Part shown: positions 2,214-62,944 of the stretch, piece by piece
Numbering within the stretch: position 1 is the first letter of the stretch
Layout of the letters: the number at the start of each line of letters is the position of its first letter
Virus record (IMG/VR): IMGVR_UViG_3300028888_000002
DNA from: a virus
Lineage: Duplodnaviria > Caudoviricetes
Direction: 5' to 3' (one strand)
Length of the DNA: 64,000 nucleotides
Notes under the pieces: generated by a model
What the model was told of the DNA's origin: nothing
Database searches by the model: none
What the model saw: only the letters and a program-made list of their open reading frames with translations
Program-made: the position numbers and the translations under genes

Positions 2214-2849
2214 TCACTTAATGAGTTCCTTCGGCAAAAGGCGTTCCCTGGTTTCGGGGTAGCGACAAATCAAGTAGCCACGGAGCATAGCGTAATAGAC
2301 CTTGTAAAGACCCTGTGCAGGACCGTAAATGTGCGTATCAATTTGGAAGAACGCACTCAAGAACGGCAGCAGCGGATTGTCTGCGTAACGCTTGACGGGT
2401 AAATCCTTCGTGTATTCGTCCATACACGGGAACATCACCAACGGACGTTCCGTTATAGCGACAACGCAAATGGGGGTTTTCTTATAGGCGTAGGTAAACT
2501 TCGTTACGCTTTTCAGCTTCTCAACGTTTTCAGTCAAGCCCAAACTCTTTGTAAGGCTGCGGGCGAAGTCTGCCAAGAAATTGAACTGTTCCTCGGAGCA
2601 GTCCATAAGGCTTTCAAGAATGCCCTGGGGCTTTTTATTACGCAAGCGTTCAAGCAGGCACTTGCCCAACTTCGTGACCTTGTAACCCCACGGGTCCGTT
2701 TCTTTCTTTGCGGGCTGTGCCTTGTCTTCAATATCCTTGCGACGCTTTACGCTCTTTTCAAGAGTCTTGCGACGTTCTGCAATCCTTTCAAAGACAGCCT
2801 TGTATTTAGGCTTTTCGTCTTTTACGGGTTTCTGTTTTTTGGTAGCCAT
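2214..2849 (-). CDS. Hypothetical protein with basic N-terminus
   Basis: 211-aa ORF with AACCGAGG RBS. Confidence 0.7.
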   Translation of the reverse strand: MATKKQKPVKDEKPKYKAVFERIAERRKTLEKSVKRRKDIEDKAQPAKKETDPWGYKVTKLGKCLLERLRNKKPQGILESLMDCSEEQFNFLADFARSLTKSLGLTENVEKLKSVTKFTYAYKKTPICVVAITERPLVMFPCMDEYTKDLPVKRYADNPLLPFLSAFFQIDTHIYGPAQGLYKVYYAMLRGYLICRYPETRERLLPKELIK

Positions 2850-3066
2850 TTCGTTTCCTCGGTTTTTGTGAAAAGTTGTATGAATAAGTTTGTCCGTTGT
2901 CGGACAAGCAGCCTGCCGTAACGTCCAGGCATTGAAAGGTCCGTGAAACTTCGTCGTCCACCTGGGGTTCTACAAGTTTACGGAGTTCCGTTTCGGACAA
3001 GGTGCTGCTGTTCGCAGACACCTTAACCGTCACGGTGTAAGTCTTTTCAAAGACCAATTTAGCCAT
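2806..3066 (-). CDS. Hypothetical protein
   Basis: Start trimmed to MAKLVFEK, translationally coupled to the upstream stop. Confidence 0.55.
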   Translation of the reverse strand: MAKLVFEKTYTVTVKVSANSSTLSETELRKLVEPQVDDEVSRTFQCLDVTAGCLSDNGQTYSYNFSQKPRKRNGYQKTETRKRRKA

Positions 3067-5656: not shown

Positions 5657-5726
5657 TAAAAAAGCCCCGCCCATTTCCCGCACTTTAGACAACCACGACC
5701 GAGGATTGGGAAAAATTGGGCGGGGC
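5657..5726 (-). terminator. Intrinsic terminator-like hairpin whose large loop is antisense to the phage leader motif
   Basis: Stem 5664-5679/5708-5726, U-tract on the minus strand; loop contains the complement of GACAACCACGACCGAGGAT. Confidence 0.7.
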
Positions 5727-6974: not shown

Positions 6975-7011
6975 ACACTTAATCCTCGGTTGAATGGTTC
7001 AACGTAAGAAT

Positions 7012-15887: not shown

Positions 15888-15960
15888 TATTTTAACAATA
15901 CCTGTTGACATTCAGCAGGTATTTTATTATATTGTAGGTGTAACCACAACCGAGGATAGC
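15888..15960 (+). promoter_or_regulatory. Terminator-promoter-leader cassette
   Basis: TTGACA 15905-10, 17 nt, TATATT 15928-33; hairpin 15897-15908/15912-15923; leader AACCACAACCGAGGATAGC. Confidence 0.8.
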
Positions 15961-15964
15961 CCCA

Positions 15965-16816
15965 ATGGAACTCAAAAGAACCTACATTCGCACAGACAAG
16001 AACGGCACAAAGCACTACGACGTGACATACCGCTGCGAGTGGTGCAGGGGCACGGGCATTCGCCCACAGTATATGCACGTTTTCGGGGGTGTATGCTTCT
16101 ACTGTGACGGTTCGGGCTTCCATACCCGTGAAGTCAAGGAATACACGGAAGAATACGCAGCAAAGTTGGAAGCGAAGCGTAAGGCAAAGCAGGAAGCCAG
16201 GGAAGCCGAAGAACAAGCTATCCGTGATGCCTGGAACCCGCTTGATGAAGTCAAGAAGCAGGGCTTTGACGCAGTTATGGGCATTGTCGTGGACGCAAAG
16301 ACGGGCAAGCCCGTGGAACGCCACGAAAAGGGCAGCAGTTGGCTCTATTTCACGGCAAAGTGCAAGAACATTTGGAACCTGTATTTCACGGACCTGGACA
16401 ACCCCGTTATCGCAGAAGACAAGAACTACCAGGTCGTGCCGATGCCCTGGAACGAAGTGTTCGTCCCGAACTACACCGCTATGACATTGCAGTGGAACGA
16501 AAATATAATGCAGACGTTCCTGGACAACCACTACTACGGCTACCCGAAGTGCCCCAAAAGCGACGCTGTGGGCAAGGTTGGCGAACGCTTGACCGTTGAT
16601 GCCACCATCAAGGAAATCAAGTCCTACGACACGTTCTACGGCACCAAATACTTCTACACGTTCCAGGACCGCAACTTCAACCTGCTCCGTTGGGAAACGA
16701 GCAAGGACCTGGAAATGGAAGTCGGGACCGCTGTAAAGCTGACGGGGACCGTCACGAAGCACGACTCCGACGGTTTCGGCTCTTACACCAACCTTAACCG
16801 CTGCAAGGTCGCATAA
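15965..16816 (+). CDS. Early protein with CxxCxGxG Zn finger and C-terminal OB-fold-like domain
   Basis: CEWCRGTG...CFYCDGSG; VGKVGER...GTVTKH...TNLNRCKV. Confidence 0.8.
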   Translation: MELKRTYIRTDKNGTKHYDVTYRCEWCRGTGIRPQYMHVFGGVCFYCDGSGFHTREVKEYTEEYAAKLEAKRKAKQEAREAEEQAIRDAWNPLDEVKKQGFDAVMGIVVDAKTGKPVERHEKGSSWLYFTAKCKNIWNLYFTDLDNPVIAEDKNYQVVPMPWNEVFVPNYTAMTLQWNENIMQTFLDNHYYGYPKCPKSDAVGKVGERLTVDATIKEIKSYDTFYGTKYFYTFQDRNFNLLRWETSKDLEMEVGTAVKLTGTVTKHDSDGFGSYTNLNRCKVA

Positions 16817-29128: not shown

Positions 29129-30483
29129 GTGAACTATTTAAGCGTAGAATTGCTTAAATGGATTGTTTTCGCATCAACGGGTTTGCGTGTGTCCCACTAT
29201 CACTAGCGGGCATAGTGGCAACTCCCTCAACGGTGGCTTGTTCCAAGCACACGGCTCTCTTTGACGAGCCAATCATCAAGACTACACGGGCAGAATGAGT
29301 GTCCCTGTCCATAGTATAACCACAACCGCACTTGTAGGTTCTATCCGCAAGCGTGGGATGGTTTATACATCCACAGGCAGGACACATCTTTGTGGTTGGT
29401 TCCCATTTGGAAATTTTGAAACTGCGACCGCTCGCTTCCAATGCGACAAGTCGCTGCTTCAATGACCCAAGACAGGATGATTGAACCTGTTTTCCAAACA
29501 AGCCCTTCTGCCACCCCTTAATCTGCTCGTCTTGAAAGTAAATTACATCATAGTCGGTCGTTAATTTGTGGTATATCTTGTTGGCGAAGTCTTTTCGTCT
29601 ATTTGCCAATCTTTCATACTCACGCCTTAATTGACTCATACACCTGTAATACCGCTTTGACTTCTTCTTGTTCTTCTCAACTCCACGCTTGTTCAGTTTG
29701 CGTGACAGAAATTTTAGATAGTCAATTTCTCGCACATCACATTTGTATTTGTCACCGTATGACGTTGTTATGGAATCCTTTATGCCGAAATCAAGACCAA
29801 CGTTCTTGTGGGTAGGAATCCTTTTGGATTTCGGCAGCATAACGCTAACTTTTAAGTAATAGCCACTAGCCTTACGAACAAGTTTAGCGTCTGCTATTTC
29901 AAACTTCTCAAACTGCTGTAATTGGTCAAGTCCGTGAACACGTAGTTTGCGGAATCCTGGAATTGTAATCCTGCACCCGTCCAGGATTTGTGTGTAGCCC
30001 GTAATGATAGGCAGGCAATTAACTTCGGATTTGAATTTTAATGCCCCGACCTTGATACCCTTCTTCTTGGCTTTTGCAAGGTTCACAATGTCTGTTCTCT
30101 TTTGGGCGACTGTCGCCCTGTGGAGAACGGACGGGAGTGAAATAGTGTCTGTTATCGGGTTCTTGTCCTTGTCGTAGTGAACTACGTTCTTATGTTCCGT
30201 GTATTTGTAATCAAACAGGGAGATGTCTTTGCTCTTGTTGGAGAGCGATAACATATCGTTCACGACCCACTTTGCTTCCTTGAAGCATTGGGCTAACTTC
30301 GTAAATACTTCTTTCGGGTTATGCCGTATGGAAACCTTGAGTTCAAAGACACGGCAAACCTGTGTTTGCCGTCTAGCCCTTGTTTCGGAAATGGACTCCC
30401 GAATCCTGGCTTTAGTGTCTTCGCTTCTTACTGTTTCCATAGATTTGACTTAAACGGACATTTCTCAATATCTAACTCAAATA
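29129..30483 (-). mobile_element. IS200/IS605-type element carrying a solo tnpB
   Basis: Right-end hairpin ATTTAAGC/GCTTAAAT then AGTTCAC on the minus strand; candidate left-end hairpin about 30442-30483; no tnpA. Confidence 0.55.
29154..30440 (-). CDS. tnpB: TnpB-family RNA-guided nuclease (RuvC-II reads QDE)
   Basis: VGLDFGIKD, YFQDE, CPAC...CGC Zn finger, DRD. Confidence 0.88.
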   Translation of the reverse strand: METVRSEDTKARIRESISETRARRQTQVCRVFELKVSIRHNPKEVFTKLAQCFKEAKWVVNDMLSLSNKSKDISLFDYKYTEHKNVVHYDKDKNPITDTISLPSVLHRATVAQKRTDIVNLAKAKKKGIKVGALKFKSEVNCLPIITGYTQILDGCRITIPGFRKLRVHGLDQLQQFEKFEIADAKLVRKASGYYLKVSVMLPKSKRIPTHKNVGLDFGIKDSITTSYGDKYKCDVREIDYLKFLSRKLNKRGVEKNKKKSKRYYRCMSQLRREYERLANRRKDFANKIYHKLTTDYDVIYFQDEQIKGWQKGLFGKQVQSSCLGSLKQRLVALEASGRSFKISKWEPTTKMCPACGCINHPTLADRTYKCGCGYTMDRDTHSARVVLMIGSSKRAVCLEQATVEGVATMPASDSGTHANPLMRKQSI

Positions 30484-35242: not shown

Positions 35243-35377
35243 ATGGCTAAAACCAAAGAAACTATCTGCAACAACTGTAATTCAAAGTCCTACTGTGCGA
35301 ACAAGGCTTTGGGCGTGACGGATTGTATCAATTACAATAAGTTCCCGAAGCCGTCCGCAGACGAATTTAAACGATGA
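35243..35377 (+). CDS. Small Cys-rich protein (44 aa)
   Basis: AAGGA RBS, MAKTKETICNNC...; not in the ORF track. Confidence 0.5.
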   Translation: MAKTKETICNNCNSKSYCANKALGVTDCINYNKFPKPSADEFKR

Positions 35378-35664
35378 ACGCATACGCTAACAAGCTGCTT
35401 GCAAGAGCCGAGGGAATTTGGCACAATCTAGGGTTGGCACTTCAAGAGAAGAAATCCCTTGAACACGACGGCTACACGTCCATATCGCTCTATTTTGACC
35501 GTATCACACCCGCCCAGGCTGAAATGCTTGTTTCTCAAATGAGCAAGGCTTTCCGCAGGGCTAACGTGTATTGGAAAGAAGACGAGCGTGGGACGAAGAT
35601 TTGTGTTGAAATCCCGCCTATGGGTTCGGGGACCCCCGTTCCTATGAAACGCAGTTGCAGGTAG
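35374..35664 (+). CDS. Hypothetical protein
   Basis: 96-aa ORF with ATGA overlap. Confidence 0.6.
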   Translation: MNAYANKLLARAEGIWHNLGLALQEKKSLEHDGYTSISLYFDRITPAQAEMLVSQMSKAFRRANVYWKEDERGTKICVEIPPMGSGTPVPMKRSCR

Positions 35665-35688
35665 TAACCACTTTGTTTATATTTTGGG

Positions 35689-35822
35689 AGCAGGACGGTT
35701 TGTAGCCATTCCGTCTTGTTACTTCCATAAGGGTGGAATAGCCCTACGTCGCTACTTTGGTAGCAGGCTCATTGGCGTGGGGCGGGGCAGCGTAGTTCTC
35801 GGTTTTCTACGCTGCCTTTTTC
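35689..35822 (+). ncRNA. Candidate small RNA (about 130 nt)
   Basis: Own promoter TTGCAG-17-TATATT (35655-83), three hairpins, terminator stem 35786-95/35807-16 plus T-tract; no convincing ORF. Confidence 0.7.
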
Positions 35823-35851
35823 TTGACAGCCACCAGGTAATTTGTTATATT
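35823..35851 (+). promoter_or_regulatory. Promoter of thyX
   Basis: TTGACA, 17 nt, TATATT. Confidence 0.75.
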
Positions 35852-35877
35852 TAAGGGACCTAAACAAGAGGTTCAAA

Positions 35878-36576
35878 ATGCCCATTACGATTATCAGTGT
35901 TACCGAAAACCCGCTTCAACTCATAGGTGAGTCCGCAGGTATTTGTTGGAATGCACCCGTTGACGACCCGCAGAAGAATATCCTTCGTGCGATTTCCTGC
36001 ATTGAAGCGGACCACGGGCGTGTCCTGGAATATCCCGATATTACGATTGTGATTGACGGTAAGTCTGCCCGTGCGTTCCGTGAACTCTATACGCACATAG
36101 GTGGGGGACCTACCCGCTTGCAATCGTCCACCCGATATGTTGACGAAAGCAACTTTAAGTATTATACGCCCCCGTCTTGCCAAAAGGACGGTGTGCGTGA
36201 AGTTTACGAAAAGGGTATGAAGCAGGTTGCGGAATTTTACGGGGAGCTTATTGAACTAGGTGTTCCCCGTGAAGACGCAGCTAACGCCCTGCCGTTGGGT
36301 ATGGACTCAAAGGTGGTGTGGAAGATTAACTTGCGGTCCCTGGTGAATTTTATGAACAAGCGTCTGTGCAGCAGGGCACTGCTTGAAATCCGACAGTTTG
36401 CAAACGAACTGCGTTCTATGCTTATGGGCAGGAACGTGGAATGGATGTGGATTTGCGAAAACCTGTTTGTTCCGTCCTGCGAACGTTACAAGTTCCTTAA
36501 CAAGAAAATGTGCTTCTGCATTGAAAAGAAAGGGTGCGGTCGCCACAAGTATATCAAGGATTTTACGCTTGACTGA
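35878..36576 (+). CDS. thyX: FAD-dependent thymidylate synthase (variant motif)
   Basis: H..VLE, QSSTRYV, REDA..LP, NLRSL, R.CSRA..EIR; RHR replaced by THI. Confidence 0.85.
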   Translation: MPITIISVTENPLQLIGESAGICWNAPVDDPQKNILRAISCIEADHGRVLEYPDITIVIDGKSARAFRELYTHIGGGPTRLQSSTRYVDESNFKYYTPPSCQKDGVREVYEKGMKQVAEFYGELIELGVPREDAANALPLGMDSKVVWKINLRSLVNFMNKRLCSRALLEIRQFANELRSMLMGRNVEWMWICENLFVPSCERYKFLNKKMCFCIEKKGCGRHKYIKDFTLD

Positions 36577-36910
36577 CGAAATAGATTGGAAAGCGGTTCG
36601 TTGCCGTATTTTGGAAACGCCTGTGGTGGTTCCACCAAAGAAGCCGTCCCGAAAGGTTGACCCCGAACAGTCCAGGGGAAAGGGTAGGCGTTTTTATGAA
36701 GCCCATAAGGACGACCCCGATTTCAAGGAAAAGAAGTCAATCAGCAATAAGGCTTACAAGGACGCTCACAAGGACGACCCCGAATACAAGGCGAAGAAGT
36801 CCGAATATAACAAATTATACAAGTTGGCTCACAAGGACGACCCCGTGTATAAGGCTAAAAGAGCCGAGGCTTGCAGGCGATACAGGGCTAGAAAGCGACT
36901 TGCTGCCTAA
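36569..36910 (+). CDS. Basic protein with three 21-aa AHKDDP repeats
   Basis: TTG start after AAGGA; repeats AHKDDP(D/E/V)(F/Y)K. Confidence 0.6.
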   Translation: MTDEIDWKAVRCRILETPVVVPPKKPSRKVDPEQSRGKGRRFYEAHKDDPDFKEKKSISNKAYKDAHKDDPEYKAKKSEYNKLYKLAHKDDPVYKAKRAEACRRYRARKRLAA

Positions 36911-56851: not shown

Positions 56852-56932
56852 ATTTTAACAAAACCTATTGACAGCAGATAGGTAATTTGTTATATTTATA
56901 GCGTAAAGAGAAAACCACCAACCGAGGATAGC
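56852..56932 (+). promoter_or_regulatory. Early promoter-leader cassette
   Basis: TTTTAACAA, TTGACA 56868-73, 17 nt, TATATT 56891-96, leader AACCACCAACCGAGGATAGC. Confidence 0.8.
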
Positions 56933-62917: not shown

Positions 62918-62944
62918 ACTTAAACCAACCGAGGCAAAAACACT

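Follow-up and report, generated by a model that had tools for sequence, protein, structure and literature searches.

A conserved structured RNA of rumen and gut phages with a terminator loop antisense to a leader common to cassette genes: a candidate trans-acting regulator

Introduction

The terminator hairpin of RepG, an sRNA of Helicobacter pylori, carries a C/U-rich loop that pairs with an element in the leader of its target mRNA and sets translation (PMC8295292). In phages P1 and P7, the c4 antisense RNA blocks the translation of a single target, ant, through loops that pair around a ribosome binding site (PMC12197685). Here we describe an RNA gene in a 64,000-nt stretch of tailed-phage DNA (IMG/VR record IMGVR_UViG_3300028888_000002, hereafter the window) that resembles each of these in part. 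Like RepG, it is predicted from its sequence to be a stand-alone RNA that employs its terminator loop as a seed on a leader. RepG, however, is bacterial, and its pairing with a G-repeat in the leader of one operon is experimentally proven, whereas the loop of the phage RNA is antisense to a Shine-Dalgarno-bearing leader that is common to a whole class of phage genes. Like c4, it is a phage RNA with loop sequences complementary to ribosome-binding-site regions. A c4-type antisense RNA as in P1 was nevertheless rejected on its architecture, since the start region of the downstream gene is not complementary; which gene lies downstream also varies between lineages, and the candidate targets are dispersed leaders. 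The phage RNA has no sequence or Rfam relationship to RepG and shares no sequence family with c4.

In phage T4 the corresponding job falls to a protein, RegA, which occupies the initiation regions of many early mRNAs and thereby blocks their translation late in infection. The logic that we propose is alike, with an RNA loop that would do the same job. A further likeness is found within the same phage, where the oversized loop of a terminator-type hairpin (5658-5726, minus strand) is likewise the antisense of this leader. That hairpin stands alone and its loop covers ~20 nt of the leader (a ACAACCAC block and a ACCGAGGAU block), whereas the RNA described here pairs over 8-11 nt and possesses three further hairpins and two other conserved motifs. 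To our knowledge, virulent or jumbo phages have yielded few regulatory RNAs, and in the literature we found none that targets a leader common to a temporal class of a phage's own genes.

Results

The non-coding RNA gene is ~135 bases long and occupies window positions 35686-35821 (plus strand), within the 213-nt gap that separates a 96-aa ORF from thyX. It contains four hairpins, the last being an intrinsic terminator, and is preceded by a conserved -10 box. The features of the locus are as follows.

35374..35664, plus strand: 96-aa ORF of no known family; always precedes the RNA and served as the query for relatives
35655..35683, plus strand: promoter-like region, with a weak -35-like TTGCAG (35655-35660), a 17-nt spacer and a -10 box TATATT (35678-35683)
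35689..35720, plus strand: hairpin 1, a 10-bp stem and a 12-nt loop (35699-35710, UUUGUAGCCAUU) with the conserved AGCCAUU
35723..35738, plus strand: a short hairpin 2 that varies and in relatives is either replaced or expanded
35741..35783, plus strand: hairpin 3, a lower stem, an apical hairpin and a 9-nt 3' bulge (35765-35773, AGGCUCAUU) with the near-invariant GCUCAUUG
35784..35821, plus strand: intrinsic terminator, a 12-bp G+C-rich stem and an 11-nt loop (35796-35806, UUCUCGGUUUU) with UCUCGGUU, then U5
35823..35851, plus strand: thyX cassette promoter, TTGACA-N17-TATATT, outside the RNA; serves thyX at 35878-36576 (Pfam Thy1)

The predicted fold has a minimum free energy of -65.4 kcal/mol (z = -5.7), and none of 200 shuffled sequences is as stable. 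A previous sequence-only reading had described this unit as a promoter, four stem-loops and a terminator with no convincing ORF. The stem-loops and the positions of their loops are borne out by the sequence, by the fold and by covariation in 17 relatives, and the terminator was correctly recognized as a 12-bp stem followed by U5. The promoter stands in part: a -10 box, either TATATT or TATTACAT, is located 8-12 nt 5' of hairpin 1 in every lineage, but the -35 is weak, as TTGCAG agrees with the consensus at only 3/6 positions and is missing from the scan's promoter list. No -35 is common to the lineages, and in most relatives the promoter is of a non-cassette class that has no TTGACA type. Judged on sequence features, then, the case for a separate transcription unit consists of a -10 box kept in all lineages and a strong terminator, together with this weak -35. 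Transcription probably starts at the G run at 35686-35688.

The one small-ORF interpretation that we considered, a 56-aa ORF with a TTG start (35684-35854), is out of frame in relatives, which argues for an RNA gene rather than a coding one and agrees with the previous reading. Searching the whole window against Rfam (release 15) at gathering thresholds returned zero matches, and by E-value the sole weak match was to a mammalian lncRNA (E = 2.3). ARAGORN reported zero tRNAs and zero tmRNAs over the window, and blastn against deposited phage records returned no match.

The upstream 96-aa ORF served as one query for relatives, in viral and metagenome contigs and in a large protein collection; a covariance model of the RNA provided a second route. 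Together these yielded 17 distinct RNA sequences from ~9 lineages, all on rumen or gut phage contigs, several of which are ~215 kb. The RNA lies directly 3' of the same 96-aa ORF in all 17. One record, G001, is 99% identical to the window, and its RNA differs by a single G-U to G-C change. The RNA is present in a single copy per genome, with no paralogues within the genomes searched. Extra viral pattern scans produced zero new lineages, and one pattern scan of bacterial genomes gave 54 pattern matches, all of them chance and none confirmed by the covariance model.

Covariation and conserved loops in related phages had been set beforehand as a check on the proposal, and both were found. Across the 17 distinct sequences, 30 of the 41 model pairs change on both sides. 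Pairing is seen in 94.8% of the alignment cells, compared with 39-60% when the partners are slid, and 0/500 shuffles equal any of the covariation measures, which are to be read with the caveat that the alignment was fitted to the structure model. Support is complete for hairpins 1, 3 and 4, including 10/10 lower-stem pairs of hairpin 3 and 10/12 stem pairs of the terminator, while hairpin 2 is short and variable. While the stems drift, three single-stranded motifs stay fixed: AGCCAUU in loop 1, GCUCAUUG in the bulge and (C/U)CUCGGUU in the terminator loop. The stem of hairpin 1 is wholly replaced in some lineages, yet its loop core is retained in 15/17 distinct sequences, with AGUCAUU in L009 and AGCUAUU in L118 as the exceptions. 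The bulge motif is identical in 15/17. The terminator loop, at 9-14 nt, is unusually long for a terminator in 16/17 sequences and retains (C/U)CUCGGUU in every lineage except L009, where the loop is reduced to 5 nt. It requires only 0.01 kcal/mol to open and so has the properties of a seed, being conserved, single-stranded and accessible. The RNA is a real and new structured RNA family.

The AGCC of loop 1 is complementary to the GGCU of the bulge, giving 4 bp in most lineages. This helix is shifted by one pair and still has 4 bp in L119 and L009; it has 3 bp in the L127 group, and the C-to-U change in loop 1 of L118 remains wobble-compatible with the bulge. These changes are suggestive of a pseudoknot between loop 1 and the bulge, though they amount to ~three events and are too few as independent changes. 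The two motifs could touch start codons, pair with each other or bind protein.

The surroundings of the RNA vary. In the window, an insertion of thyX with its cassette promoter (35823-36576) separates the RNA from the DEIDW gene (about 36578-36910). In relatives the RNA and this gene adjoin each other, some with and some without a cassette promoter. We rejected thyX as the regulated gene, as L009, L015 and others have the RNA and lack thyX, and the RNA is missing from the thyX relatives L012 and L013. Upstream, a 44-aa Cys-rich ORF and the 96-aa ORF (window 35243-35664) always follow Tad1, a Sequestin-like gene and DUF5662; neither of the two ORFs has a Pfam or PHROG match.

In three contigs (L018, L019 and L025, about 1749-1790) the 96-aa ORF and the DEIDW gene are 5 nt apart and the RNA is absent; a partial genome of this lineage retains the AACCGAGGA leader. 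The RNA of L122 (1520-1870) is expanded, with ~190 extra structured nucleotides in place of hairpin 2 (z = -3.65, no Rfam match), and it keeps loop 1, the bulge and the terminator loop. In two further contigs, one of which is 210 kb, an element of ~1.4 kb splits the RNA inside loop 1, after UUUGUA (L020:1447-2860 and L121:1520 onward). The sequence to the right of this insert has a -10 box that is new and a 9-bp hairpin that differs from the original but again has GCCAUU in its loop; hairpin 2 and the rest of the RNA follow. The insert carries a 431-aa minus-strand ORF with RuvC-like motifs; in L020 this ORF has no Pfam, PHROG or PDB sequence match, and the sole lead is an Atlas feature match to a viral family that partly carries SSO2105_N.

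Canonical TnpB genes (OrfB_IS605 and Cas12f1-like TNB) adjoin the RNA locus in at least four contigs, at the following positions.

L114:1495-2649: TnpB gene adjoining the RNA locus
L126:717-1871: TnpB gene adjoining the RNA locus
L122:1986-2658: TnpB gene adjoining the RNA locus
L128:1305-2353: TnpB gene adjoining the RNA locus

They landed 5' of the RNA promoter, within the DEIDW gene or 3' of the 96-aa ORF, which marks the RNA locus as an insertion hot spot. A TnpB omega-RNA or an IS605 end was rejected as the identity of the RNA itself: the tnpB of the window (29154-30440, minus strand) is 5 kb away, and the TnpB-type genes beside the RNA in relatives are on the opposite strand, where they interrupt or flank it.

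The cassette genes of these phages are preceded by TTGACA-N17-TATATT and then a leader that ends in AACCGAGGAU a few bases 5' of the ATG. The core of this leader, AACCGAGG(A), bears the Shine-Dalgarno sequence and is common to the cassette genes; AACCGAGG occurs 9 times where 2.25 are expected, mostly 8-11 nt 5' of an ATG. The leader is borne by 4/7 cassettes in the window, by 20/35 in the complete relative G003 and by 12/23 in G002, and a 215-kb genome has 20 or more cassette genes. As to start contexts over the whole window, ATGGCT heads 14/79 predicted genes, T is favoured at -1, and many proteins start MAKK or MATK. The leaders and hairpin relevant to pairing are listed here.

15948..15967, plus strand: example of a cassette leader, AACCGAGGAUAGC..AUG
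142-149, 480-487 and 6984-6991, minus strand: other cassette leaders
56920-56927 and 62927-62934, plus strand: other cassette leaders
2836..2866, minus strand: leader and start of ORF 2214-2849 (gene 2849), the best two-site candidate target in the window
5658..5726, minus strand: second anti-leader hairpin, whose large loop is complementary to the leader, as confirmed from the sequence

The conserved (C/U)CUCGGUU of the terminator loop is the antisense of the leader core AACCGAGG(A), and the resulting duplexes are predicted at -12 to -14 kcal/mol. A cruder duplex test, in which the loops with their stem flanks were compared with all start regions, gave no enrichment for any loop; it was later replaced by loop-only and accessibility-aware tests. 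In G003, at least 8 contiguous pairs with the loop are available in 26 of the 35 cassette leaders, whereas shuffled loops achieve this with 4.2 leaders on average (p = 0.01). When accessibility is taken into account, the G003 leaders score -10.3 kcal/mol, compared with -7.9 for mid-gene controls (p = 1.6e-7) and -7.7 for shuffled leaders (p = 1.6e-8). The preferred site on the RNA is the terminator loop for 21/35 leaders and for 12/120 controls. The same preference is seen with the window RNA against the leaders of the window and G001, at -8.8 against -7.0 and -6.0 (p = 0.0014 and 1.1e-5). The RNA of G002, which belongs with L009 to the lineage that has lost the anti-leader loop, shows no leader preference (p = 0.95), and the anti-start preference is absent from this lineage as well. 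The proposal that the terminator loop can pair with a phage-wide leader therefore stands, in that the complementarity exceeds chance in G003 and in the window lineage. Complementarity to targets of this kind is a property of the terminator loop toward cassette leaders and not of the bulge.

The complementarity proposed between the terminator loop and the ribosome binding site of gene 2849 is likewise found, with 11 pairs, one of them G-U, to AAAACCGAGGA at 2856-2866 (minus strand) and -13.9 kcal/mol. Loop 1 reaches -12.9 kcal/mol at the start of the same ORF. The match of loop 1 to this start had been put at 14/16 with stem bases included; we count 11/12 in the loop and 12/16 with flanks. The starts of Tad1 and of the Sequestin-like gene also match loop 1 at 11/12 positions each, 9 of them contiguous at Tad1. 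More broadly, loop 1 can pair over at least 7 nt at 12/79 start regions of the window, where shuffles give 1.7 (p < 0.002), and at 21/317 in G003 (p = 0.03). Its enrichment at start regions thus upholds one part of the anti-start proposal, but it is accounted for by AUGGCU being the commonest start hexamer (14/79 genes). The bulge, proposed as a third anti-AUG element, is not enriched for pairing to start regions.

Gene 2849 and Tad1 do not hold up as specific targets. Neither G002 nor G003 has a homologue of gene 2849. At Tad1, the start and loop 1 do not covary: the start is unchanged where loop 1 is retained, as in the window, G001, G003 and G004, and in G002 both are altered without compensation, so that 9 bp of pairing become 6 bp. 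L122 and L132 have different Sequestin-like starts and an unchanged loop 1. Separately, G003 has at about 185191-185420 (L049) a 51-aa cassette gene (MATKYF...) with a AACCGAGGA leader and, at its start, a 12/12 complement to loop 1; homologues of this gene are absent from the window, G001, G002 and G004.

Discussion

Our leading reading, which we hold tentatively and regard as possible rather than probable, is that the RNA is a phage-encoded sRNA that acts in trans, its terminator loop pairing with cassette leaders and damping their translation. The terminator loop would kiss the leader, cover its GAGG Shine-Dalgarno sequence and compete with the 30S subunit, and the outcome would be reduced translation, perhaps also altered stability, of the whole leader class. 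The RNA is likely to be made on a schedule unlike that of the cassette genes, because its own promoter has no cassette-type -35 in most lineages, and it would serve to switch off early-type genes. An additional contact may come from loop 1 (AGCCAUU) at AUGGCU starts, as in the leader of gene 2849, or else this loop may shape the fold by pairing with the bulge (AGCC with GGCU). Of the multi-loop trans-acting sRNA that had been proposed, what remains is a structured, stand-alone RNA with conserved, accessible loops, one of them anti-leader; the anti-AUG pairing proves generic and trivial, and the named targets fall away.

Several observations favor an sRNA that acts on the leaders. The fold (z = -5.7) and the covariation (30/41 pairs) are strong, the loops are kept across ~9 lineages in which stems are replaced, and the terminator loop is both unusually long and fully accessible. 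The leader class is real, and the loop prefers leaders over controls. The downstream gene varies, being thyX, the DEIDW gene, DUF7487 or others, which argues against a cis leader; the RNA is single copy, and the same phage has a second anti-leader hairpin at 5658-5726. Against this reading, pairing is limited to 8-9 bp in most leaders and, in the window lineage, includes a G-U pair. Because G/U-rich loops are promiscuous partners of A/C-rich leaders, the shuffle background is high, and no enrichment was obtained in the test with stem flanks. In the L009/G002 lineage the leaders are retained although the terminator loop has only 5 nt and shows no preference; one lineage without RNA at the site retains the leader, and a mobile element interrupts the gene in L020 and L121. 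The most conserved motif, GCUCAUUG in the bulge, is not accounted for by the model. Finally, there is no loop-target covariation, as loop and leader are both nearly invariant.

In a different proposal, the RNA acts through its fold or a bound protein, as a scaffold, sponge or decoy, with the conserved motifs as protein or tertiary contacts; given its place at the end of a block of Tad1, Sequestin-like and DUF5662 genes, a counter-defence role is then conceivable. The bulge, which is the most invariant motif of the RNA, is without pairing enrichment to start regions, the AGCC of loop 1 can pair with its GGCU (including the wobble in L118 and the shifted 4 bp in L119 and L009), and the synteny with the Tad1-to-96-aa gene block is constant. 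We nevertheless consider this proposal rather unlikely: the 96-aa neighbor occurs without the RNA, no partner protein emerged from the analysis, the loop 1-bulge pairing falls to 3 bp in the L127 group and has changed in ~three independent events, and the match between the terminator loop and the leaders is left unexplained. Less probable again is a cis element, that is, a terminator or insulator that ends the Tad1-to-96-aa operon and gates read-through, with the loop complementarity incidental. L009, L015 and L119 have no promoter between the terminator and the next gene, which must then depend on read-through, and elsewhere a cassette promoter follows the U tract immediately, an arrangement seen in the terminator-promoter-leader cassettes of the phage. 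However, the loops are constrained while the stems drift, and a plain terminator needs neither a conserved 11-nt loop nor three upstream hairpins; the unit also has its own conserved -10 box and a downstream gene that differs among lineages, and by eye no antiterminator pairing is kept between the window and L015. A riboswitch or attenuator leader was rejected on similar grounds, as the downstream genes differ and inspection revealed no conserved antiterminator.

Two further readings appear very unlikely to us. One is the repressor originally envisaged, in which several anti-AUG loops, with the bulge as the third such element, would act on gene 2849 and Tad1. It can draw on the 11/12 matches of loop 1 at the 2849, Tad1 and Sequestin-like starts, on a Tad1 start that is kept in the window, G001, G003 and G004, and on the additional terminator-loop site of gene 2849. 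Since AUGGCU is the commonest start, however, such matches are expected for any loop that holds AGCCAU; moreover, gene 2849 is absent from G002 and G003, the G002 changes at the Tad1 start and loop 1 are uncompensated (9 bp to 6 bp), the Sequestin-like starts of L122 and L132 differ while loop 1 is constant, and the bulge is not enriched. The other, to which we give equally little credence, also sees a trans-acting sRNA, with host mRNAs as its real targets. Conserved loops could be seeds for host sites, and several phage-encoded sRNAs act on host genes, an example being lambda LPR1/PreS (bioRxiv 10.1101/2024.10.31.621285). The one bacterial pattern scan, on the other hand, confirmed no copy of the RNA among its 54 matches.

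Returning to an sRNA that pairs with the cassette leaders, a bolder extension can be envisaged, which we consider doubtful: a class-wide RNA switch by which these jumbo phages would control their own genes, two or more sRNAs with oversized anti-leader terminator loops silencing some 20-30 early-type genes after the early phase, with two CAUU-bearing motifs clamping the start codon. Such a switch, if it exists, would do with RNA what the RegA protein does in T4.

The family offers an unusually clean comparative signal, in which strong covariation and fixed loops are combined with a concrete target motif. Should the anti-leader model prove wrong, what is left is still a new and well-defined structured RNA family beside counter-defence genes. 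Should it prove right, phages would time classes of genes by RNA-RNA pairing at a common leader, which could provide a compact design principle for synthetic control.
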